A DNA stretch of 44,549 nucleotides from a virus (Duplodnaviria; Heunggongvirae; Uroviricota; Caudoviricetes). The position numbers and the translations under genes were made by a program. Each line of letters begins with the position of its first letter. The first letter of the stretch is position 1. Of the stretch, positions 1-44,510 are shown one piece after another. The stretch lies in IMG/VR virus record IMGVR_UViG_2721755710_000002; one strand, given 5' to 3'. Under the pieces are notes generated by a model. It worked only from the letters and a program-made list of their open reading frames with translations, made no database searches and was not told where the DNA came from.

Positions 1-342
1 ATGGTTAACATCGTCATAGCAAGGGATTTCTCAAAGATGCCATTTGGAAGGTTCAAGTCTGACAGCCCGAACAGTGCTGAGCGTTTTCGTAAGGACTTTC
101 TGGTTCCTGCATTAAAATCTGGTGAGCGTGAGGTTGTCGTAGATTTTACGGGTATAAATCATGGGATTGGTTCTTCGTTTCTAGAGGAGGCCTTTGGAGG
201 GCTTGTTAGGAAGGAAGGTGTACCTAAGGCTGACATTAAGGCAAAACTAATTATAAAAAGTGATTTGCCGTTCTATAAAGATCAAATTTTTAGATATATT
301 GAAATGGCTAATCCAGAAAGGAAGCCTTTCCAAAGGAGTTGA
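1..342 (+). CDS. small STAS-like (DUF4325-like) protein; may be 5'-truncated by the window edge
   Basis: ORF in AT-rich DNA; the motif VVVDFTGINHGIGSSFLEEAFGGLV resembles the STAS-like DUF4325 signature (recalled, not searched). The ORF starts at base 1, so the true start may lie upstream. Confidence 0.4.
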   Translation: MVNIVIARDFSKMPFGRFKSDSPNSAERFRKDFLVPALKSGEREVVVDFTGINHGIGSSFLEEAFGGLVRKEGVPKADIKAKLIIKSDLPFYKDQIFRYIEMANPERKPFQRS

Positions 343-363
343 TTTGAACACCGTTGATATTAA

Positions 364-385
364 GGACACCCTTGCAGGGGTGTCC
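364..385. repeat. perfect 8-bp inverted repeat (GGACACCC-N6-GGGTGTCC) between the two left-end ORFs
   Basis: Read directly from the sequence; no T-run follows, so not a canonical intrinsic terminator. Possible RNA hairpin or protein-binding site. Confidence 0.5.
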
Positions 386-397
386 ACTTACGCATGG

Positions 398-973
398 ATG
401 TTTAGTGTTGTGAGTATTATCTTAGTGTTTATTGGATGGTTTGTTACTTACAATAATTCACTGAAGATTGCTACTCGCTCTGAATCTAAATCGATTATAG
501 ATGCGATTGCTAAAATTTTAAACGAAATATCAGATTTGTCTCTGGATTACTGGGTTAATAAGTCAACACCACCAGATTCTAATCCATTTAAGAAAAAAAG
601 TTTTAAGAACTCTAATGGATTGCATACTCAGTCGGCGAAAATATATTTAACGGCAATTCATGGAAAAGCCATACAAATAAATAAATACATTAATCTTCTC
701 GATGAGAGGGGGATAAAAATAACAATTTCGTATTTTTCTAATATTATAGATGAAGCTACTATGGAATGTGAGAAATCATATTGTTTTAATAAGTCATATA
801 GGGTTTTTCGCGCTCAGAATGTATCTAGTGCTTGTGTCGATTTCATAATGCATTTATATGATTCTTTTCAAAAAAATCATCCTCCACGTAAGCCTGTATA
901 TGTATTGAAAACATTAAAACAATTGGATTGTTACTTGGATAAATGGCATAATGAATTATGTGGGCGGCAATAA
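398..973 (+). CDS. hypothetical membrane-anchored protein (one N-terminal TM helix, ~190 aa)
   Basis: ORF 260..973; the first ATG after the upstream stop and hairpin is at 398. Hydrophobic stretch FSVVSIILVFIGWFVTY near the N-terminus; AT-rich composition; no recognisable domain. Confidence 0.4.
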   Translation: MFSVVSIILVFIGWFVTYNNSLKIATRSESKSIIDAIAKILNEISDLSLDYWVNKSTPPDSNPFKKKSFKNSNGLHTQSAKIYLTAIHGKAIQINKYINLLDERGIKITISYFSNIIDEATMECEKSYCFNKSYRVFRAQNVSSACVDFIMHLYDSFQKNHPPRKPVYVLKTLKQLDCYLDKWHNELCGRQ

Positions 974-981
974 ATGCCGCC
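963..981. other. 7-bp stem hairpin (GGCGGCA-ataaa-TGCCGCC) between convergent ORF2 and int
   Basis: Inverted repeat spanning the ORF2 stop codon, 5 bp from the int stop; could act as a bidirectional terminator or RNase III-type site (inference). Confidence 0.4.
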
Positions 982-985
982 ATAA

Positions 986-2152
986 TCATTGTATAATGTA
1001 TTTGATGGAGCTTTTTCCGTCGTATTCTTTGAGATATCGACCATAGTGCCTGAAAAGCATCTCCGGCCCTTTATGCCCCATTTGAGCTGCAAGCCAAAAC
1101 AGGTTTGCTCCTCGGCTGATATGGCTGGTGGCGAATGTATGCCTGGTTTGATATGGGTTTCTGTAACGAATACCTGCTTTTCGCAATGTTGGCACCCATG
1201 CTTTTTTCCTAATTGCATCAGCACTTGCCCAAGGCTTATTGGTCTTTGGATCTTCAAAGACAGTAGTATCCTTCATGAATGTAAATGGCTTCTGATTTAT
1301 CAGCGCCAACATTGCCTCTTCTGTCAGTTCAACTTTCCGAGTACCTGCTTTTGTCTTTGTCCCTTTGATAACACCGACAACACTTGCGCTCTGGACATGG
1401 GCAGTTTTTCCAACAAAGTCGATATCACGCCATCGAAGGGCACATAATTCAGAACTACGCAGGCCTGTATGTATAGCGAACCGGAACAGATTTTCCCATT
1501 GTTTGTTTCCGGCTGCTGCTAGTAATGCATCAACTTCTGCTGGTGATAGCGGATCAACTACGTAGCTGCTTTCTGCTTCTGACTTATCACTTTGGTAGCG
1601 CGAAGCTGTTACTAACGATACGGGGTTAATTTGAAGTACCCCATCGGTCACGGCTTCATCAAGTGCTGACCGCAGGAAAGATAACTGGTTGCGAATTGTT
1701 TTTAAGGTCGTTTTCTGATTTTGAATCCACGCTTTCAGGGTTGCTGGTGTTAATTCACTTGCAGGGCAAATGTGAAGTGAGGCTAACGCACTACGGCATT
1801 TTTTATAGCCACCAATCGTAGAGGGTGAAAGTTTTCTCGTTTCGCAGATTTCAAGGTATTCGTCCAGGTACATTTTTACCGTTTTGCCTGCAGCAGCATT
1901 ACCAAAAATTTTCAAACGAGCAGAACGGGGAAAATATTCCGCATAAATGAATGTTCCCCTTTCGATCTTATTATGAATTTCGCCGAGTGTGCGCTCGGCG
2001 TATTTAATGTTCTTTGGTGTTACTTCCAGATTGGAAAGAGGCTCACGACATTTAACACCTTTGTAGGTGAAAGTTATATTGATCGTTTCGCCCTGGCGGT
2101 GTTTCCTGATTGTTACGCCGCGCGGTAGTTTGAGCAGTTTTGTCTGGCCCAT
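986..2152 (-). CDS. int: tyrosine site-specific integrase
   Basis: 388-aa ORF; C-terminal catalytic region with HTGLRSSELCALRWRDID ... TRHTFATS ... HYGRY (R, H-x-x-R and Y typical of the phage integrase family). Confidence 0.9.
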   Translation of the reverse strand: MGQTKLLKLPRGVTIRKHRQGETINITFTYKGVKCREPLSNLEVTPKNIKYAERTLGEIHNKIERGTFIYAEYFPRSARLKIFGNAAAGKTVKMYLDEYLEICETRKLSPSTIGGYKKCRSALASLHICPASELTPATLKAWIQNQKTTLKTIRNQLSFLRSALDEAVTDGVLQINPVSLVTASRYQSDKSEAESSYVVDPLSPAEVDALLAAAGNKQWENLFRFAIHTGLRSSELCALRWRDIDFVGKTAHVQSASVVGVIKGTKTKAGTRKVELTEEAMLALINQKPFTFMKDTTVFEDPKTNKPWASADAIRKKAWVPTLRKAGIRYRNPYQTRHTFATSHISRGANLFWLAAQMGHKGPEMLFRHYGRYLKEYDGKSSIKYIIQ

Positions 2153-2331
2153 TTTGCAACCTCACTAAGATCAATCCACCTCTCCTTAACGCCTTCAACC
2201 TTTAAAACCTGAACACCTTCACGCCAAACACCGCGCTGTACACGTTTGTTTATTGCTTCAGGAGTTTCGCCAGTTTCTTTGCAATAAGTTGAGATAGGAA
2301 CACAATCGAGGTTCAGCATATGTTTCTCCAC
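2113..2331 (-). CDS. xis: excisionase-like small DNA-binding protein
   Basis: 72-aa ORF immediately upstream of and overlapping int on the same strand; basic small protein in the position and size of an excisionase. Confidence 0.55.
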   Translation of the reverse strand: MEKHMLNLDCVPISTYCKETGETPEAINKRVQRGVWREGVQVLKVEGVKERWIDLSEVAKWARQNCSNYRAA

Positions 2332-11692: not shown

Positions 11693-11717
11693 AGGGGGAA
11701 TTACCCCCCTTTTTTTC
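11693..11717. terminator. intrinsic terminator immediately after Q, probably bidirectional
   Basis: GGGGG-aatta-CCCCCC stem followed by TTTTTTT on the plus strand; it also lies at the 3' end of the minus-strand cassette. Confidence 0.6.
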
Positions 11718-12249
11718 TCTGTTGCTTTAATAAAATTTTAATATTTTGTCTGATTATGATGAGGCAATGTAATAAAAGAAATACCGTTAGTATTGCAAGC
11801 CATACGCAAAATAAGCATGCATATAAATTAGTTGAAAGTCCAATAGTGAATTGTGCAATTGCTGTTGTGATAGAACATAATATTGATGTATTAATAAATG
11901 AGGATAAATTGTCTAAAGGTTTATAAAGTACACTATCATTGATTTTGTCAATAGGTATACCAGTGGCAATGCTATAAATTTCCTTATATTCCTGAGTTGC
12001 AAAAACCTTATCGCGTAAATTTATTATGACAAAGGTATGCAGGCTCAATAAAAATGAACCCACGGAAATAAAACCGGAGAAGAGATAGCCTCGTAAGTTT
12101 TTATGATAAAAATCAAAAAAGTTAACACTTACTTTAGGTGTGTTTCTGTACAATAGGTAAAGTGCAAGCAATGCCAGGATCGAGAATGCAAGCAGTGTAA
12201 TGTACTGATACCTCAATCTTTTATTTATTAGCCATTCATATAAAGGCAT
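11701..12249 (-). CDS. hypothetical integral membrane protein (about 4 TM helices), AT-rich cargo gene
   Basis: 182 aa with four hydrophobic segments (YITLLAFSILALLALYLLY; LFSGFISVGSFLLSLHTFVII; ILCSITTAIAQFTIGL; LYACLFCVWLAILTVFLLLHCLIII); overlaps the upstream gene by 14 nt. Confidence 0.6.
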   Translation of the reverse strand: MPLYEWLINKRLRYQYITLLAFSILALLALYLLYRNTPKVSVNFFDFYHKNLRGYLFSGFISVGSFLLSLHTFVIINLRDKVFATQEYKEIYSIATGIPIDKINDSVLYKPLDNLSSFINTSILCSITTAIAQFTIGLSTNLYACLFCVWLAILTVFLLLHCLIIIRQNIKILLKQQRKKGG

Positions 12250-13162
12250 TTTTATTCGTCCCGTTCAGCATTTCTTCTTTTATCATATCAAAAACAGGGT
12301 TTGTTGTATAATTATCGTTTGTCAATCCATTGACTTTATCGGCAATTATATCGAAATCGTATGTTTCAAAAAAAACAGGGCAGTTCATAAAATCAATGGT
12401 TTTTTCTATTCCTGCATGGTTTACTGCAATAACCTGTGCTTTAGCAACTCCACTCATAGAATTATAAATATTTGAAAGATTCTGAGATAGTTGTTGCACT
12501 TTTGTTCTGTCGCTAGAATTAAAATTCATATCTATTGTGGTGGTGTTAACAAATTGTTCAAGCGCAGTCATTGGTCCACCTTTAAAATCTATATAATTAA
12601 ATTTAAAGCTTGTGCTTTTAATCTCTTTGAATTGACATAAAACACTCTGAATGTTGTTTTTATTTGTCATAAGGCTGAAAGTCAGTCTTTCTTTGTATTT
12701 TTTATTTATTGCAGTTACTTCTTTTTGTTTTGGTTTATCACCAAGTTTTTTTATTTCTTCTTTATTTTGATTTCTGATAAATTCATTACTTATTGTTTCT
12801 AAATGAGAAAAGAGAGTGTTCAGACTGCATGAACCGTGGTGATACATATAGAGACCAGAAAGATTAGATTTTTTAATTAAGAAAAAGTTGAAATTAGCAA
12901 GTTTGTCACTTCCTTGAAGATCTTCAATTTTAAGCTGGAATTTACCATCAACAAATTGCGACTTACAGTTCTTTTTTTGGTTTCTGAATGTGACAACTAA
13001 TCCATAATAGAAATCATTCACATCCGAAATGAGAATTTTACGAGTATAGTCTGTGCGACTGTGTTCTCTGTTTGATGCGTTGATAAAAGCATTCATTACG
13101 TCAACGGTATTAATATTTTTGTTATTGTTATTTATTGTAAATCCTATGCTTCTAACTTTCAT
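12236..13162 (-). CDS. hypothetical soluble protein (308 aa), AT-rich cargo gene
   Basis: Long Lys/Asn-rich ORF antisense to the phage backbone; no Walker, HEPN, cyclase or nuclease motif recognised. Confidence 0.6.
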   Translation of the reverse strand: MKVRSIGFTINNNNKNINTVDVMNAFINASNREHSRTDYTRKILISDVNDFYYGLVVTFRNQKKNCKSQFVDGKFQLKIEDLQGSDKLANFNFFLIKKSNLSGLYMYHHGSCSLNTLFSHLETISNEFIRNQNKEEIKKLGDKPKQKEVTAINKKYKERLTFSLMTNKNNIQSVLCQFKEIKSTSFKFNYIDFKGGPMTALEQFVNTTTIDMNFNSSDRTKVQQLSQNLSNIYNSMSGVAKAQVIAVNHAGIEKTIDFMNCPVFFETYDFDIIADKVNGLTNDNYTTNPVFDMIKEEMLNGTNKNAFI

Positions 13163-31812: not shown

Positions 31813-34800
31813 ATGGGTAAAGGCAGCAGTAAGGGGCATACCCCGCGCGAAGCAAAGGACAACCTGAAGTCCACGCAGTTGCTGAGTGTGATCGATGCCA
31901 TCAGCGAAGGGCCGGTTGAAGGTCCGGTGGATGGATTAAAAAGCGTGCTGCTGAACAGTACACCGGTGCTGGACAGTGAGGGGAATACTAACATCTCCGG
32001 TGTCACGGTGGTGTTCCGGGCAGGTGAGCAGGAACAGACACCGCCGGAGGGATTTGAATCATCAGGTTCCGAGACGGTACTGGGTACGGAAGTGAAATAC
32101 GACACGCCGATCACCCGGACCATCACGTCGGCAAACATTGACCGTCTGCGCTTTACCTTCGGTGTGCAGGCACTGGTGGAAACCACCTCAAAGGGGGACA
32201 GGAATCCGTCGGAAGTTCGCCTGCTGGTTCAGATACAACGTAACGGTGGCTGGGTGACGGAAAAAGACATCACCATTAAGGGCAAAACCACCTCGCAGTA
32301 TCTGGCCTCGGTAGTGGTGGATAATTTGCCGCCGCGCCCGTTCAACATCCGGATGCGCAGGATGACGCCGGACAGCACCACAGACCAGCTGCAGAACAAA
32401 ACGCTCTGGTCGTCATACACCGAAATCATCGATGTGAAACAGTGCTACCCGAACACGGCACTGGTCGGCGTACAGGTGGATTCGGAGCAGTTCGGCAGCC
32501 AGCAGGTGAGCCGTAATTATCATCTGCGCGGGCGCATTCTGCAGGTGCCGTCGAACTATAACCCGCAGACGCGGCAATACAGCGGTATCTGGGACGGAAC
32601 GTTTAAGCCAGCATACAGCAACAACATGGCCTGGTGTCTGTGGGATATGCTGACCCATCCGCGCTACGGCATGGGGAAACGTCTTGGTGCGGCGGATGTG
32701 GACAAATGGGCGCTGTATGTCATCGGCCAGCATTGCGATCAGTCGGTGCCGGACGGTTTTGGCGGCACGGAGCCGCGCATCACCTGTAATGCGTACCTGA
32801 CCACACAGCGTAAGGCGTGGGATGTGCTCAGTGATTTCTGCTCGGCGATGCGCTGTATGCCGGTATGGAACGGGCAGACGCTGACGTTCGTGCAGGACCG
32901 ACCATCGGATAAGGTGTGGACCTATAACCGCAGTAATGTGGTGATGCCGGATGATGGCGCACCATTCCGCTACAGCTTCAGCGCCCTGAAAGACCGCCAT
33001 AATGCCGTTGAAGTGAACTGGATTGACCCGGATAACGGCTGGGAGACGGCAACAGAGCTTGTGGAGGACTCGCAGGCCATTGCCCGTTATGGTCGTAACG
33101 TCACGAAGATGGATGCGTTTGGCTGTACCAGTCGGGGGCAGGCGCACCGCGCCGGGCTGTGGCTGATTAAAACGGAGCTGCTGGAAACGCAGACCGTGGA
33201 CTTCAGCGTGGGTGCTGAAGGGCTTCGCCATGTACCGGGCGATGTCATTGAAATCTGCGATGATGACTATGCCGGTATCAGCACCGGCGGGCGCGTGCTG
33301 GCGGTGAACAGCCAGACCCGGACGCTGACGCTCGACCGTGAAATCACGCTGCCATCCTCCGGTACCACGCTGATAAGCCTGGTTGACGGAAGTGGCAATC
33401 CGGTCAGCGTGGAGGTCCAGTCCGTCACCGACGGCGTGAAGGTAAAAGTGAGCCGTGTTCCTGACGGCGTTGCCGGATACAGCGTATGGGGGCTGAAGCT
33501 GCCGACGCTGCGCCAGCGCCTGTTCCGCTGCGTGAGTATCCGTGAGAACGATGACGGCACGTATGCCATCACTGCCGTGCAGCATGTACCGGAAAAAGAG
33601 GCCATCGTGGATAACGGGGCGCACTTTGACGGCGACCAGAGCGGCACGGTGAATGGTGTCACGCCGCCAGCAGTGCAGCATCTGACCGCAGAAGTCACCG
33701 CAGACAGCGGGGAATACCAGGTGCTGGCCCGCTGGGACACGCCGAAGGTGGTGAAGGGGGTGAGCTTCCTGCTTCGCCTGACCGTGGCAGCGGATGACGG
33801 CAGTGAGCGGCTGGTCAGCACGGCCCGGACGACGGAAACCACTTACCGCTTCACGCAACTGGCGCTGGGGAACTACAGGCTGACAGTCCGGGCAGTAAAT
33901 GCGTGGGGGCAGCAGGGCGATCCGGCGTCGGTATCGTTCCGGATTGCCGCACCGGCAGCGCCGTCGCGGATTGAGCTGACGCCGGGCTATTTTCAGATAA
34001 CCGCCACGCCGCATCTTGCGGTTTACGATCCGACGGTACAGTTTGAGTTCTGGTTCTCGGAAACGCGGATTACCGATATCAGGCAGGTTGAAACCACAGC
34101 CCGCTACCTTGGCACGGGGCTGTACTGGATAGCCGCCAGTATCAATATCAAACCGGGCCATGATTATTACTTTTATATCCGCAGTGTGAACACCGTTGGC
34201 AAATCGGCATTCGTGGAGGCTGTTGGTCAGCCGAGTGATGACGCATCCGGCTATCTGGATTTTTTCAAAGGCGAGATAGGGAAAACCCATCTGGCTCAGG
34301 AGCTGTGGACGCAGATTGATAACGGTCAGCTTGCGCCTGACCTGGCTGAAATCAGGACATCCATTACGGATGTCAGCAATGAAATCACACAGACCGTCAA
34401 TAAGAAACTGGAAGACCAGAGTGCAGCGATCCAGCAGATACAGAAGGTTCAGGTTGATACAAATAATAACCTGAACAGCATGTGGGCCGTGAAACTGCAG
34501 CAGATGCAGGACGGACGCCTTTATATTGCGGGTATCGGTGCCGGTATTGAGAATACGCCAGCAGGAATGCAGAGTCAGGTGCTGCTGGCGGCAGACAGGA
34601 TTGCGATGATTAATCCTGCGAATGGCAACACAAAGCCGATGTTTGTTGGTCAGGGTGATCAGATATTCATGAACGATGTGTTCCTGAAATATCTGACGGC
34701 TCCCACCATTACCAGCGGCGGTAATCCTCCTGCATTTTCCCTTACACCGGACGGGCGACTGACGGCGAAAAATGCGGATATCAGTGGCAGTGTGAATGCG

Positions 34801-35292
34801 AACGCCGGGACGCTCAACAATGTCACGATAAATGAAAACTGTCGGGTTCTGGGAAAACTGTCTGCGAACCAGATTGAAGGCGATCTCGTTAAAACAGTGG
34901 GCAAAGCTTTCCCCCGGGACTCCCGTGCACCGGAGCGGTGGCCATCAGGGACCATTACCGTCAGGGTTTATGACGATCAGCCGTTTGACCGGCAGATTGT
35001 TATTCCCGCGGTGGCGTTTCGTGGCGCTAAACATGAGCGGGAGAATAACGATATTTATTCGTCATGCCGCCTGATAGTGAAGAAAAACGGTGCTGAAATT
35101 TATAACCGTACCGCGCTGGATAATACGCTGGTTTATACAGGTGTTATTGATATGCCTGCTGGTCGCGGTCACATGACGCTGGAGTTTTCGGTATCAGCGT
35201 GGCTGGTAAATGACTGGTATCCCACAGCCAGTATCAGTGATTTGCTGGTTGTGGTGATGAAGAAATCCACAGCAGGTATCACGATTAGCTGA
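31813..35292 (+). CDS. central tail fiber / host specificity protein J
   Basis: 1159 aa; N-terminus [45 protein letters not shown]… matches the recalled lambda gpJ start. Confidence 0.9.
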
Positions 35293-36024: not shown

Positions 36025-39000
36025 ATGGCAGTAAAGATTTCAGGTGTACTGAAAGACGGTGCAGGTAAACCGGTACAGAACTGTACAATCCAGCTGAAAG
36101 CAAAACGTAACAGCACCACGGTGGTGGCGAACACGGTGGCCTCAGAAAATCCGGATGAAGCCGGGCGTTACAGCATGGACGTTGAGTACGGTCAGTACAG
36201 CGTTATTCTGTTGGTGGAAGGCTTCCCGCCATCGCATGCCGGGACCATCACCGTGTATGAAGACTCACAACCGGGTACGCTGAATGATTTTCTTGGTGCC
36301 ATGACGGAGGATGATGCCCGTCCGGAGGCACTGCGCCGCTTTGAACTGATGGTGGAAGAGGTGGCGCGTAACGCGTCCGCAGTGGCGCAGAACACAGCAG
36401 CCGCGAAGAAGTCAGCCAGCGATGCCAGCACATCAGCCCGTGAGGCGGCAACCCGTGCGACTGATGCTGCAGGCTCAGCACGTGCAGCCAGCACGTCAGC
36501 CGGACAGGCCGCGTCGTCGGCTCAGTCAGCGTCTTCCAGCGCAGGAACAGCATCAACAAAGGCCACTGAAGCATCAAAAAGTGCTGCCGCCGCAGAGTCT
36601 TCAAAAAGCGCGGCAGCCACCAGTGCCGGCGCAGCGAAAACGTCGGAAACGAATGCCGCAGCGTCACAAAAATCTGCGGCCACATCTGCATCCACCGCGA
36701 CCACGAAAGCGTCAGAAGCTGCCACCTCAGCCCGGGATGCGTCGGCTTCAAAAGTGGCGGCAAAATCATCAGAAACGAGCGCAGCCTCGAGCGCCGGCAG
36801 TGCAGCTTCCTCGGCAACGGCGGCAGGAAATTCCGCGAAGGCCGCAAAAACGTCTGAGACGAATGCGGATAACAGCGCACAGGCGGCAGCAGACTCACAA
36901 ACTGCATCGGCAAACTCCGCGACAGCAGCCAAAAAATCAGAAACCAACGCGAAAAATAGTGAGGCAGCAGCAAAGGTCAGCGAAACCAACGCTAAAGCGT
37001 CAGAGAACAAGGCGAAAGAATATCTCGACAAGGTCGGGGGACTCGTCAGCCCGATGACGCAATACGATTGGCCTGTTGTTACTGCTAGTGAGTCTCTTTA
37101 CATCAAGATCGCGAAACTTTCCGATCCTGGAACCAGCAGAAGTCATGTAACGCTAATGGTTACTAACGCTGGTAACTACGGCTCCCCTTACGGAAACATT
37201 GACTTTATCGAGATCTCGGCGCGCGGTCTGCCTTCTTTGCTTAGTGCGGATAATGTTTCTCGTCATCTGAGTATACGCCGCTTAGGGTCAACCGGGCTGA
37301 CCGATAACAACCAGATGCGTTACGGCCTGGTTAAAGGTGACGGCTTTATTGAGGTTTGGGCATTCCAGGGTGCGTTTATTAACGACGCAAAGGTTGCGGT
37401 GCTGGCGCAGACAACACTAAGCACAGAATTATACATCCCAGACGGATTTGTTAAGCAAACCGCCGCGCCTTCTGGATATATTGAAGGCAACGTTGTAAGG
37501 ATTTACGACCAGGTAAACAAGCCGACTAAAGCAGATTTGGGTCTTTCTAATGCTATGCTTACAGGCGCTTTCGGTCTTGGCGGTAGCGGGATATCAACAA
37601 ACGGCAAGATGAGCGATGTAGAGATCTTAAAAGCTCTGCGTGACAAAGGTGGTCATTTCTGGCGCGGTGATAAGCCGCCCGGAAGCACGGCGACCATTTA
37701 TAGCCACGGTTCTGGTATATTCTCGCGGTGCGGCGATACGTGGTCAGCGATCAATATCGACTACTCAACCGCGAAGATTAAGATCTATGCCGGCAACGAT
37801 GCCCGGCTTAACAACGGGACTTTTAGCGTCAATGAGCTATACGGCTCGGCAAACAAGCCGTCGAAATCGGATGTTGGACTTGGCAACGTAACGAACGATG
37901 CGCAGGTAAAAAAAACCGGCGATACAATGACCGGTGACTTGACAATCAAAAAAGGTACACCGTCAGTCTTCCTGCGGGCAGACAGTGGAGTCACCGCTTT
38001 GCGGTTTTATACTGGCGATAACACAGAGCGCGGCATAATTTATGCTGGTCCTAACACTGATTCGCTTGGCGAAGTTCGCATCAGGGCAAAGACAGCAGGG
38101 GGGACATCAGGAGGGGATCTTGTTGTTCGTCACGACGGGAGGGTTGAAGTCCGTGATCTCACAGTAGCGTATAAAATTAAAAGCAGAACGATTGAGATTG
38201 CAAATACCGACACTGACTCATCGGCAACTACGCTAAGCATCTATGGAGTACAGCACACGCCGTTGGTTTTAACGCGTTCTGGTTCTTCTGAAAATGTGTC
38301 CATTGGGTTTAAGTTAGACAACGTGAACCAAAAGTATCTTGGAATTGATACTAATGGGGATCTGGCTTTTGGTGAGAGTCCTGATCAGAAACAAAACAGC
38401 AAATTGATCACGCAAGCGAAACTCGACAAGGGATTAACGATTGGTGGTCAACTGGCTTTCAAAGGTACGACAGCGTTTTCAGCCGTTGCTACGTTCAGTG
38501 CCGGGATAGCAGGAGCCATCGAGCCGGAAAACATTGACGGCCAGACGGTTAATCTTAACAACCTGACCATCATCAAGTCAGATGTCGGGGCAGTTAAATA
38601 CTATATTTGTCCATCCTCTGCAGGTGGTGCAAATATTACCAATAAGCCTGACGGCATAGCCGGTAACTTTTTGCTTCGTGTAGAGTCGACTCGTAAGGTT
38701 AGGGATTCAGATTATGCGAACATGCAAACGCTGATTAACAGCGACACAAAACGTATATACGTTCGCTTTGTTGTTAATGGAAACTGGACAGCGTGGAGTC
38801 AGGTTGTTGTTTCCGGATGGAATCAGGATGTAACCGTCAGGTCGTTAACCTCGACGACTCCATCAAAATTAGGTGGCGGGCGGATTGATGTGCTTGGAAG
38901 TACTTCAGATTATGGCAGCATGAATTGTACCGTTCGTGGTGTTGATAGCACTGGAACCAATTCGGCGTGGTCGGTAGGCACATCAGAAAGCACAGGCAAA

Positions 39001-40056: not shown

Positions 40057-40875
<819 letters not shown>

Positions 40876-41236: not shown

Positions 41237-42670
41237 ATGTCTGAATTTGAAGTGTTGGCACAGCATCTGCTGAAGGAAGCCGAGGCGGAAGAAAAGCTGC
41301 GACAGGAAAATGATAAAAAGCTTATCGAGAAAGTGCTGGAAATCTATGATCAGAAGTATGTGGCTGAATTACTGAGAAAAGTCGGAAAAAATGAGTGGAG
41401 CCGTGAAACCATTAACCGCTGGATTAATGGCAAGTGTTTACCAAAATCGTTGACTTCAGTAGAAGAGTCTCTTCTGCGTAAGATGCTACCAGAACCACCT
41501 GCAAACCATCCGGAATATGCTTTCCGCTTCATTGACTTATTTGCTGGAATTGGAGGGATACGGAAAGGTTTTGAGGCCATTGGAGGCCAGTGTGTTTTTA
41601 CCAGTGAATGGAATAAAGATGCTGTGCGTACATACAAGGCCAACTGGTTTAACGATGAACAGGTGCATAAATTCAATCTCGATATTCGGGAAGTCACGCT
41701 GAGTGATAAAACCGATGTATTGGAAACGGATGCTTATGCATATATTGATGAGCATGTGCCGGATCATGATGTGCTTCTTGCGGGGTTCCCGTGCCAGCCA
41801 TTTAGCCTTGCTGGTGTTAGTAAGAAAAACTCACTTGGTCGTGCGCATGGTTTTGAATGTGAAGCACAAGGAACACTTTTTTTTGACGTGGCACGTATTA
41901 TACGAGCAAAAAAACCGGCAATTTTTGTGCTGGAAAATGTCAAAAATCTGAAGAGCCATGATAAGGGTAAAACTTTCAAAGTCATTATGGAGACCCTTGA
42001 CGAGCTGGGCTACGAAGTTGCCGATGCTGCAGAAATGGGAAAAAACGATCCAAAGATTATCGATGGGAAGCATTTTTTGCCTCAGCATCGTGAACGCATT
42101 GTTCTGGTCGGATTTAGACGAGATCTGAATATTCACAAGGGGTTTACCTTGCGTGATATCAGTCGTTTTTATCCGGAACACCGCCCATCATTTGGTGAAT
42201 TGCTGGAGCCTGTAGTCGACAGTAAATATATACTTACGCCAAAACTATGGGAGTACCTTTATAACTACGCCAAAAAGCATGCAGCCAAGGGGAATGGTTT
42301 TGGCTTTGGGTTGGTCAATCCTGAGAATAAGGAAAGCATTGCACGCACACTTTCTGCCAGATATCACAAAGACGGATCAGAAATTCTTATTGATCGTGGT
42401 TGGGATATGGCAACGGGAGAGGCTGACTTTATGAATGAGAGTAATCAGGCTCGTCGACCACGCAGGCTGACTCCCCGAGAGTGCGCACGCCTTATGGGAT
42501 TTGAAAAACCTGGAGGGAAACCATTCCGTATTCCGGTTTCAGATACTCAGTCATATCGGCAGTTCGGTAACTCAGTTGTGGTGCCAGTATTTGAAGCTGT
42601 TGCCAGACTTCTGGAACCCTATATCCTCAAAGCTGTTTCTGCTGATGCTGGTAAGACTGGGCAGCCTTGA
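41237..42670 (+). CDS. DNA cytosine-5 methyltransferase, Dcm/M.EcoRII-like
   Basis: C5-MTase motifs [10 protein letters not shown] (I), [11 protein letters not shown] (IV), VLENVKNL (VI), [10 protein letters not shown] (X); GGAGG RBS 6 nt upstream of the ATG at 41237, giving 477 aa. Confidence 0.9.
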
Positions 42671-42704: not shown

Positions 42705-43913
42705 CTATGATAGTTCAGCGTAAAGCTCTATCAGCTCAGTAATGAATGCTCCGAGCGTTATTAATTCTTCTCTAACTGCTTCTGGGTATTTTTTATGTAA
42801 AGTTGATGGTACAACGAGTCTGACACCCGCATCTTTCATTTCTCGGTATTGTGCTGAAGAAACACCTTCTTGCAGTGTAAATAAATGTACCTGATGGATT
42901 TTATCTGCTTCATTCAGTATCTGACGCCAGCGATCTTTGCAGGTGGTCTTTACTGCCAGCATACGTAAGTTTTCTACAGGAAATTCAACGTTATGATATG
43001 CCTCTGCTGAAGGAAACAGGAAATCTGGTTTTTTATTACCTTCAGTAACTGCCTGAGTGGAGAAATGCCGTAGTCCGTGCTCGATAAAAAGCTTCTCTAG
43101 GTGAAGTTCAAGTGATTTGCCTGCCCTTGATTTACGTCGATTACTGACAGAGTTGGCTAATGCAATAAACTCATCTACAGAATCGAATCCTTTCTTAATA
43201 ATATCAAGAACATGTAATTCCTCGACGAGTAGAAAAATATCATACTCGACACGCCGACGGTCAATCAGTTGCTCATCTGGATCCTTGGAGTTTTTAGCAT
43301 AATGGCCAGCAGCATATTGAATAATTTCGTTTCCAGAAGGAAAACGCTTCTTCCAGTCTTCAGGAATAACATATTTATGATTTACTGGAGTTTGCTGAAG
43401 AGACAATCCGCCCAAAATTTGTCCGGCAGGGCCGGAAATTAGGGTTCCAGGTATGATTTCGCCAATAGCAGACTCGATGATATCCTCTTCATCGGGATTG
43501 ACGCAGACCCATATATCTACCTCGGAACAGTCAGTGTTCTGTTCGTTTAACCTGAAAGCAAGAATTGTGAGGGCTCCTGTATTTTCAGGGTTCTGTAATG
43601 GACTTCCTCTCCCCCAGCGCGTAATTCTTTTTTCGTTTCGGGTCTTACCAAAATAACGGTTGTTGTAATAAATTGCGCGTGCTTGGGTATCAGGGCAATC
43701 ATGGGATGATACATGCGCAGTAAGGAAGACTGAAGGGTTCAGTTCGCGAGTATGATTGATAGATGGAAAAAGCTTTTCAACGATATTTGAGGGGATATAA
43801 AGTCCGACCTGATGGCCACCTGTTGCGCCTGTGTCGTTTGCAGAAAGGCGTTTGATGTAGATAAAGTAATTCCCGCTTGCGATATCAAGCAGCCAGTTAT
43901 GAAAAACCGACAT
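42705..43913 (-). CDS. EcoRII-like type IIE restriction endonuclease
   Basis: ~402-404 aa; N-terminal …YIKRLSANDTGATGGHQVGLYIP… and overall sequence resemble EcoRII as recalled; convergent with the MTase. Start could be 43913 or 43919. Confidence 0.75.
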   Translation of the reverse strand: MSVFHNWLLDIASGNYFIYIKRLSANDTGATGGHQVGLYIPSNIVEKLFPSINHTRELNPSVFLTAHVSSHDCPDTQARAIYYNNRYFGKTRNEKRITRWGRGSPLQNPENTGALTILAFRLNEQNTDCSEVDIWVCVNPDEEDIIESAIGEIIPGTLISGPAGQILGGLSLQQTPVNHKYVIPEDWKKRFPSGNEIIQYAAGHYAKNSKDPDEQLIDRRRVEYDIFLLVEELHVLDIIKKGFDSVDEFIALANSVSNRRKSRAGKSLELHLEKLFIEHGLRHFSTQAVTEGNKKPDFLFPSAEAYHNVEFPVENLRMLAVKTTCKDRWRQILNEADKIHQVHLFTLQEGVSSAQYREMKDAGVRLVVPSTLHKKYPEAVREELITLGAFITELIELYAELS

Positions 43914-44017: not shown

Positions 44018-44147
44018 TTTGTGTCACTCGAGAGCCGCGGCTCCTTTGCGTATCCTTTTTTGTCTCCTCACCGTCTGGTCGGTGTCCTGCTGAGACTGCT
44101 AACTTCCTGTTTTTGTTGGTGTTGTCCTTACACCGTCCAATCATGAT

Positions 44148-44510
44148 TGGTGGAGCTGGCGGGAGTTGAACCCGCGTCCGAAATTCCTACATCCTCGGTA
44201 CTACATGCTTAGTCAGTCTTTACATTCGCTTGCCAGCTGCGGACGGACACGCCACTAACAAACTAGCCTGATTAAGTTTTAACGCTTCAACCCCAGGCAG
44301 GGCTTCCACGCGATCTCTTTTGGGTTTGACCTCTCTTGATCCCCGTCCTAAGAGCGGAGGCTAGGGAGAGAGGGCTCTAAGCAGGTTATTAAGCTGCTAA
44401 AGCGTAGTTTTCGTCGTTTGCGACTATTTTTTGCGGCTTTTTACGAGGCCAACCGCCCCTCGGCATGCACCTTGGGTTTCGCAAATCCCGTCGAATCCAG
44501 AATCAGCCCC
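44148..44510 (-). ncRNA. ssrA: tmRNA (SsrA), 363 nt
   Basis: The reverse complement begins GGGGCTGATTCTGGATTCGACGGGATTTGCGAAACCCAAGGTGCATGCCGAGGGGCGGTTGGCCTCGTAAAAAGCCGCAAAAAATAGTCGCAAACGACGAAAACTACGCTTTAGCAGCTTAATAA (tag-peptide ORF …ANDENYALAA*) and ends …GGACGCGGGTTCAACTCCCGCCAGCTCCACCA. Confidence 0.9.

Follow-up and report, generated by a model that had tools for sequence, protein, structure and literature searches.

Systems in which a kinase and a STAS protein gate the release of an effector by phosphorylation entered the bacterial-immunity literature in 2026, with CapKS and VapKSC. VapKSC (Chambers et al., EMBO J 2026, PMC13373217) consists of a STAS-GHKL kinase (VapK), a small STAS antitoxin (VapS) and a PIN toxin (VapC). 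Ser48 of VapS is needed for function and is buried in the interface with the toxin, and the substitution S48E abolishes antitoxin activity. The vapKSC operon protects against phage Bas42, and single-stranded DNA (ssDNA) has been proposed as the activator of both VapK and CapK (PMC13373217). The system was called toxin-antitoxin-like and DNA-damage-responsive, and its authors consider the line between stress response and immunity to be blurred (PMC13373217). In CapK-CapS, a kinase with helix-turn-helix (HTH), STAS and GHKL domains phosphorylates a repressor composed of STAS and winged-HTH domains at a conserved serine on helix 2, and the pair regulates CBASS, Bub and Thoeris operons (PMC13373217). 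The current study concerns K-S-T, a three-gene locus at the left end of a 44,549-nt stretch of Caudoviricetes DNA (IMG/VR record IMGVR_UViG_2721755710_000002), the whole of which is referred to below as the window.

K-S-T is a widespread membrane-protein form of these recently described kinase-STAS-gated systems, and is itself uncharacterised. Its three genes encode, in order, a STAS-kinase (K), a small STAS-like protein (S) and a single-pass membrane protein (T). It is set apart from VapKSC because K and S agree with the kinase and antitoxin of that system while the PIN toxin by which VapKSC is defined, and the inhibitory helix of the antitoxin, are both lacking. By analogy, K-S-T probably works like VapKSC with a membrane protein replacing the nuclease toxin, and the prospects that it is a kinase-gated membrane effector acting by abortive infection are judged to be about even. 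The more specific proposition, a distinct and phylogenetically broad anti-phage abortive-infection system in which a phospho-STAS 'antitoxin' would free a new, membrane-acting four-helix-bundle effector, is put forward tentatively, as somewhat short of an even prospect.

Gene K and the extent of the operon

The preliminary description of the window reported two ORFs on the same strand to the left of the integrase gene (int), in markedly AT-rich DNA, and took them for a pair that might be incomplete. The ORF calls agree with this, as does the composition (40.6% G+C in S and 32.4% in T, against 50.2% for the whole window). Two ORFs are indeed all that is visible of the unit within the window, where the first has its ATG at base 1, and they could be read as a self-contained STAS sensor with a membrane effector, or as ordinary host genes. 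The window start, however, coincides with a provirus-boundary artefact that is also seen in other IMG/VR contigs. Nucleotides 1–1000 match the genome of Escherichia coli elppa10 (NZ_CP083478.1) at 100% identity and eight further complete genomes at 99.8% or more, and extension leftward in the source genome, which had been proposed as a check, reveals gene K and a left attachment-site (att) repeat beyond the window start. The last base of K is window base 8, so that K and S share 8 nt, and an upstream K is present in about 150 of 160 related loci where the contig allows. The suspicion of incompleteness was thus justified, and the supposed pair belongs to a conserved operon of three genes, which opens with a GHKL serine kinase. 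Both the self-contained pair and the host-gene reading are refuted by the recurrence of K across loci together with the mapping of the att repeats (see below), and retain hardly any probability.

K is a STAS domain fused to a serine kinase of the SpoIIAB/RsbW type, because the GHKL motifs are invariant among 26 aligned homologues. These are the N-box (E155-A-x-x-N159-x-x-x-H163-A-Y), G1 (D201-x-G-x-G), G2 (R242-G-N-G-S) and G3 (G292-T). A search of a large protein collection gave 149 homologues, with lengths of about 300 aa. In the AlphaFold2 model (predicted local distance difference test score 87.6) the STAS strand begins at residue 2. The 141-nt spacer between the att repeat and K was scanned for sigma-70 promoters, and no consensus promoter was found in it.

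Gene S and its relationship to VapS

S had been described as a STAS-like protein of about 113 aa resembling DUF4325, and this assignment holds. It matches Pfam PF14213 (DUF4325, 'STAS-like') over positions 1–58 of the 64 in the profile, with E = 8.1e-15 and a score of 54.7 bits (gathering cut-off 23). Family members are 100–116 aa long, and an alignment of 26 homologues from several phyla has 20 invariant columns. The invariant motif is GSSFLEEAFGGL, with G57-S58-S59-F-L-E-E-A-F-G-G-L68 among the invariant residues. Ser58, within this motif, is the putative phospho-acceptor; a serine or threonine stands at the equivalent place in 82 of the 87 surveyed loci.

For comparison, the VapS and VapK sequences were extracted from the supplementary AlphaFold 3 model of PMC13373217. 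VapS is also a member of PF14213 (E = 2.7e-17), and when it is aligned with the S profile its Ser48 falls on Ser58 (hhalign E = 3.8e-4). VapK aligns with the K profile over the C-terminal half of the kinase (hhalign E = 4.5e-5). In the former alignment S ends about 9 residues past the last aligned position (about 10 past its STAS fold), whereas VapS continues for 24. Searching the PDB with S by phmmer gave no match, in a library that extends to 8 April 2026 and probably lacks the VapS-VapC entry 9Z7O, and profile searches of the PDB with the S and K alignments returned noise only, or an RsbW N-box match at E = 0.43. NCBIfam, scanned with S and T (K lay outside that scan), gave no match for either.

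Gene T and the S/T junction

T most likely starts at the TTG codon at nt 344, 1 nt past the S stop codon and 5 nt past the Shine-Dalgarno sequence AAGGAG. Since the same start is annotated by RefSeq, and homologues at 64–68% identity preserve the N-terminal sequence 'KDTLSGVS.YAWMFS' in frame, the protein is taken to be 209 aa long and not about 190 aa as first described; the single N-terminal transmembrane (TM) helix of that description stands, and is found throughout the family (residues ~17–36). The layout of the S/T junction implies that translation of the two genes is coupled.

The hydrophobic segment of T includes an invariant G31-W32 and has a median 19-residue Kyte-Doolittle score of 1.74 in 82 homologues. 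A juxtamembrane motif, Y-x-N-A-x-K-I-A-T-R-S-E-S-K, is kept, as are scattered residues elsewhere (W70, L119, E143 and P181). The predicted topology is N-out/C-in, with an N-terminus of about 16 residues outside and a cytoplasmic, all-alpha domain modelled as a four-helix bundle. The family comprises 164 cluster representatives among 1.84 billion proteins, ranging from 65 to 289 aa, all of them free of fusions to other domains. T matches PHROG 30059 (E = 2e-47), a family without assigned function. It has no significant match in Pfam or NCBIfam, and no PIN match in Pfam at E values up to 10; the Pfam family Phage_holin_6_1 scores 12.7–13.5 bits (E = 0.1–0.17), under its gathering threshold of 24.9. 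A fold search with the T model returned generic helical bundles and was uninformative.

The lack of a toxin-like fold leaves room for T to be a sensor or membrane anchor rather than an effector. In such a partner-switching module T would detect envelope perturbation (phage DNA injection, membrane stress) and control K, and S, phospho-S or K would act on another conserved cellular target. S is far more conserved than T, and its 20 invariant residues across phyla would fit a universal target; the classical partner-switching STAS proteins RsbV, SpoIIAA and SypA act on downstream partners (PMC8256260). The bundle is, however, predicted to be cytoplasmic, so that the short outer N-terminus has little with which to sense extracellularly, and the surveyed loci have neither a fourth conserved gene nor a recurrent output partner. 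Moreover, VapKSC, the only relative to have been characterised, has its effector in third place, with the counterpart of S as the inhibitor of that effector. A sensory T is therefore considered unlikely, although it deserves some weight.

Two hairpins had been noted earlier in this region. The first, a perfect 8-bp inverted repeat at nt 364..385 that was thought to separate the two ORFs, is present but lies inside the T coding sequence (codons 7–14), because T begins at TTG 344. As RNA it has a dG of -17 kcal/mol. The window contains 18 perfect 8-bp inverted repeats of this kind, and 17% of shuffles of nt 1–985 contain at least one; since such repeats are frequent, this one is no evidence of a signal and is probably incidental. 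Its role as an inter-cistronic regulatory hairpin is ruled out by its coding position and chance frequency. The second hairpin, by the 3' end of int, was found as described. Its end lies 5 nt away from the stop codon of int, and it has a stem dG of -13.9 and -14.2 kcal/mol on the two strands. The stem-loop is without a T-tract and was not called by a terminator scan, and it may be a weak bidirectional terminator or an RNA-stability element between the convergent genes T and int.

Distribution of K-S-T

The S motif was sought in one genome per species, where it occurs in at least 535 species, and the best 80 of these loci were examined along with 7 found earlier; in IMG/VR at least 208 viral contigs bear the motif, and 80 of these were retrieved. 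The order K-S-T is found in about 150 of the 160 loci surveyed, in several phyla. Among the genome loci, about 80 of 87 have a tightly coupled upstream ORF that matches the K profile, and after iteration of the hidden Markov model the downstream protein belongs to the T family in 82 of 86. The viral contigs give a similar picture, with K in 71 and T in 75 of the 80. Co-occurrence in other genomes, suggested earlier as a test of the unit, is thus evident on both sides of S, with K upstream and T downstream. Where a viral contig lacks K, its end mostly coincides exactly with the S start codon, the truncation also met in the present window; evidently, automatic boundary calling for proviruses frequently places the cut within the operon or directly ahead of it. 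IMG/VR contigs that start at the S or K start codon are L108-L110, L113-L114, L118-L120, L122, L124-L126, L135, L145 and L165. Sizes range over ~280–400 aa for K, ~100–120 aa for S and ~145–220 aa for T.

The triad is found in varied surroundings. It adjoins the integrase of a dusA-integrated element in Vibrio, lies past the tail genes of a Yersinia prophage and between the lysis and terminase genes of a lambdoid prophage in Providencia, and is carried on the chromosome of Pseudoalteromonas; it also occurs in Opitutaceae and Methyloversatilis. The published annotation of Francisella phage KIRK lists a trio of a 293-aa protein, a DUF4325 protein and a TM protein. An integrase gene comes directly after T in 20 of 110 cases, and phmmer detected one within 4 kb in only 4 of the 80 loci from species representatives. 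Among complete E. coli genomes, K-S-T cassettes are present in about 2.5%, including those of UTI89, S88 and IHE3034. A link to extracytoplasmic-function (ECF) sigma factors was also considered, as genes of this type, with a putative anti-sigma gene, stand a few genes upstream of two chromosomal copies (L004 2581-3799 and L013 163-1607). It was rejected: just 1 of 160 loci carries such a gene in its flanks, and the neighbours are therefore probably a coincidence.

The prophage-borne copies occupy positions typical of temperate-phage morons (between int and att, past the tail genes, between lysis and terminase genes), and in the present prophage the cassette runs from the att side against the direction of int, the orientation to be expected of a gene expressed in the lysogen. 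A module that benefits the phage without killing the host could be accommodated there, with K and S regulating T in superinfection exclusion or lysis control. T would then block DNA entry or lysis, like HK97 gp15, P22 SieA or T4 Imm, or would time the holin. Consistent with this, T is a small protein that spans the inner membrane once, and it has weak matches to Phage_holin_6_1 (E ~0.1). Those matches are, however, far under the Pfam cut-off (13 against 24.9 bits), and the known exclusion proteins do not depend on a kinase-STAS pair. Many copies of K-S-T, moreover, are chromosomal and do not lie in prophages, among them those of Pseudoalteromonas and Opitutaceae and the majority of the 80 loci from species representatives. 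Such a phage-serving module is regarded as quite improbable.

Position within the prophage

K-S-T lies inside a lambdoid prophage of about 45 kb that is integrated at ssrA, between the att core and int, because the att core repeat is found beyond the cassette. The preliminary description had predicted prophage cargo between int and the attachment site, and this proved correct: a copy of the 31-bp ssrA repeat is located 141 nt upstream of K (coordinates are given in Table 1). Ordinary host genes outside the prophage, the outcome that would have spoken against cargo, are contradicted by this repeat and by extraintestinal pathogenic E. coli (ExPEC) strains that lack the neighbouring integrase island described below, in which the cassette lies between int and glaH. 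No second copy of the 31-bp core occurs within the window, nor does one occur in shuffles.

To the left of the left ssrA-3' repeat there is a CP4-57-type IntA integrase island (L001 9467-10943), and as it stands directly beyond the repeat, the source strain has two elements in tandem at ssrA. In CFT073, JJ1886 and S88 the prophage abuts glaH directly.

Table 1. Coordinates of K-S-T, of the ends of its prophage and of other cargo genes. Positions refer to the window unless a locus handle (L) is given; L001 is the locus in NZ_CP083478.1.
Feature	Position	Strand	Description
Gene K	-915..8 (L001 11085-12008)	+	307 aa, WP_032083256; TAA stop at 6-8
Gene S	1..342	+	113 aa, WP_032083255; stand-alone DUF4325 STAS-like protein; putative kinase substrate
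S/T junction	333..346	+	AAGGAG Shine-Dalgarno 333-338; S stop TGA 340-342; T start TTG 344-346
Gene T	344..973	+	209 aa, WP_063082127; TTG start (alternative ATG 398); single-pass inner-membrane protein, putative effector
Inverted repeat	364-371/378-385		GGACACCC/GGGTGTCC; perfect 8 bp, 6-nt loop, within T codons 7-14
T transmembrane helix coding region	392..451	+	Residues 17-36, AWMFSVVSIILVFIGWFVTY; hydrophobic segment conserved in alignments
GC-rich 7-bp stem-loop	963-969/975-981		T stop codon in loop; end 5 nt from int stop codon
Integrase int	986..2152	-	388-aa tyrosine integrase, convergent with T; Arm-DNA-bind_2 E 5e-23, Phage_integrase E 1.5e-16
Excisionase-like gene	2113..2319	-	Overlaps int start; RefSeq coding sequence; phage phiNP homologue annotated xis
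Left copy of 31-bp att core	about -1087..-1057 (L001 10913-10943)		141 nt upstream of K start codon
Right att core	44147..44177		31 bp at ssrA 3' end, TTGGTGGAGCTGGCGGGAGTTGAACCCGCGT
ssrA (tmRNA), intact	44148..44510	-	Chromosomal integration target; ARAGORN, tag peptide ANDENYALAA; RefSeq
CFT073 slot	L018 3762-4950		Two unknown proteins, 271 and 127 aa
FDAARGOS_1265 slot	L019 4140-4919		One unknown 259-aa protein
JJ1886 slot	L020 2204-4916		AAA ATPase and methyltransferase matching PD-Lambda-5_B, E 6e-124
Citrobacter phage phiNP slot	L017 1087-2874		AAA ATPase alone
AT-rich overlapping pair	11701-12249, 12236-13162	-	182 and 308 aa, 29-34% G+C
PD-T4-3 match	40057-40830	-	LEM-3-like GIY-YIG protein, single-gene defence system; PADLOC E 7.6e-140
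Type II restriction-modification pair	41237-42670, 42705-43913	+, -	Cytosine methyltransferase E 4e-230 and restriction enzyme E 1.5e-233

Proposed mechanism and its assessment

By analogy with VapKSC, unphosphorylated S would bind T in an uninfected lysogen and keep it inactive. A signal associated with infection (ssDNA being the activator proposed for VapK and CapK) would activate K, which would phosphorylate S at Ser58, and phospho-S would free T. T, presumed toxic once released, would self-associate in the inner membrane or otherwise perturb it, with collapse of membrane integrity or energy, and growth would be arrested before the infecting phage could complete its cycle. Because the cassette encodes no phosphatase, the switch would be one-way. 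A defence role of this sort is plausible, given both the resemblance to VapKSC and the genomic context.

Several observations weigh against this abortive-infection scheme. T evolves much faster than S (15–40% against 45–60% identity), which is unexpected since the invariant surface of S would dock on T, and the fold of T, as modelled, is non-diagnostic. In sequence the likeness to VapKSC is weak, with hhalign probabilities of 69% for K with VapK and 36% for S with VapS, obtained with single-sequence templates. Phe54 of VapK, a putative ssDNA contact in the STAS domain (W68 in CapK), corresponds to Tyr48 of K when the sequences are placed by eye, hhalign having left this region uncovered, and it appears not to be family-conserved, the column being Y, F, L, M, R or V in 26 homologues. 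Self-killing in response to DNA damage would get in the way of SOS induction of the very prophage on which the switch is carried. Many K-S-T copies are chromosomal and without obvious mobile or defence neighbours, and among 50,697 records of isolated-phage genomes searched by tblastn an S homologue was detectable in just one, Marinobacter phage AS1. In PADLOC-DB v2.0.0, K and S have no match, and T matches only '2TM effector' at noise level (E = 0.0055–0.0073).

The lack of a PADLOC match would also suit a kinase-controlled toxin-antitoxin or general stress module, which would serve addiction or a DNA-damage response and have no specific anti-phage role. The cassette is compact, mobile and AT-rich, and VapKSC itself is toxin-antitoxin-like and responds to DNA damage (PMC13373217). 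The mechanism of such a module is largely shared with the abortive-infection scheme, and the selective benefit alone differs. With regard to that benefit, validated anti-phage systems are found both in the same slot of a related prophage (PD-Lambda-5) and at the opposite end of this one (PD-T4-3), and VapKSC protected against phage Bas42 (PMC13373217); a module with no anti-phage role is accordingly held to be distinctly unlikely.

The int-att slot and other prophage cargo

An integrase with 95–99% identity to that of the window is present in about 530 of 5,426 complete E. coli genomes. Homology among its carriers stops at window position ~1012-1041, and this particular cassette is found in only nine genomes. 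In other members of the group the slot holds different genes (Table 1), and the int-att interval of ssrA prophages is a hotspot for defence cargo; the unknown slot genes of sibling prophages are candidates for further uncharacterised systems. A K-S-T allele of ~68% nucleotide identity is carried by 127 further complete E. coli genomes, among them UTI89, S88, IHE3034 and avian-pathogenic (APEC) O1/O2 strains. In S88 (L181 3050-4920) it occupies the same slot beside the same int, which implies that the cassette has either been resident for long and diversified, or been acquired more than once.

The ssrA-proximal end of the prophage carries a PD-T4-3 match and a type II restriction-modification pair, so that defence cargo is present at both ends. 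A further AT-rich pair of overlapping genes lies between the Q antiterminator and the methyltransferase/lysis genes, and is presumably the 'first' such pair of the preliminary description, in which the present locus was counted as the second. It has no match in Pfam or PADLOC and counts as moron cargo. RefSeq, in the identical genome, lists the tail-tip gene (~31813-35292) as a pseudogene that has an internal stop, and the tail-fibre gene (~36025-37014) as truncated. According to that annotation, the prophage may be defective for particle formation.

Significance

The same kinase-STAS switch, equipped with a membrane protein, is found in hundreds of species and many prophages, including those of uropathogenic and avian-pathogenic E. 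coli. If the proposed mechanism is correct, the principle of phosphorylation-gated release extends to a new class of effector and can be studied in a tractable E. coli model. The switch would then be a modular trigger wired to nuclease, transcriptional and membrane outputs, and the membrane version may be the commonest, with the proviso that the counts for VapKSC and K-S-T come from different databases and different methods. A testable role is also provided for families hitherto labelled 'hypothetical' or 'STAS-like' (PHROGs 3364 and 30059, and Pfam DUF4325, which corresponds to the C-terminal part of PHROG 5816). A practical lesson is that the kinase goes unseen when tools that call provirus boundaries end the element at the start codon of S or K, as they often do.

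Comparison with known systems

A membrane-protein variant of the kinase-STAS systems is absent from PMC13373217, and none was found in wider literature searches. VapKSC resembles K-S-T in the order of its three genes, in which a kinase is followed by a STAS protein and then by the third gene. The kinases are of nearly the same length (K 307 aa, VapK 302 aa) and both combine STAS and GHKL domains. S and VapS are both DUF4325 proteins of about 115 aa with Ser or Thr at the position of VapS Ser48. Neither operon includes a phosphatase, and both are often near defence genes. The two systems differ in the third gene, T being a single-pass membrane protein with a helical bundle and VapC a PIN nuclease. 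They differ also in the ~20-residue C-terminal helix of VapS (residues 94–116), which reaches the active site of VapC and is missing from S. Furthermore, K and S form a distinct and tightly conserved subfamily, marked by the SFLEEAFG motif, and their similarity to VapK and VapS is marginal.

CapK-CapS likewise pairs a GHKL kinase that has a STAS domain with a partner STAS protein. CapK, however, has an N-terminal HTH domain where K starts directly with STAS, and CapS ends in a winged-HTH repressor domain whereas S is without a DNA-binding domain. CapKS is followed by a multi-gene immune operon, and S only by T. The classical pairs SpoIIAB-SpoIIAA and RsbW-RsbV also differ from K-S-T: no sigma factor or PP2C phosphatase is present in the K-S-T neighbourhoods examined, the kinase of K is fused to a STAS domain of its own, and the predicted output is a membrane protein instead of transcription.

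In its proposed logic, K-S-T is comparable to the TM effectors of CBASS and Pycsar, the 2TM effectors of retrons and RexAB, in which a cytoplasmic sensor frees or activates a small inner-membrane protein that then compromises the membrane. T has no significant sequence or fold relationship to these proteins, and its architecture, a single TM helix followed by a cytoplasmic bundle, is different from theirs. The means of activation would also set K-S-T apart, as it is predicted to come from protein phosphorylation and not from a nucleotide signal.

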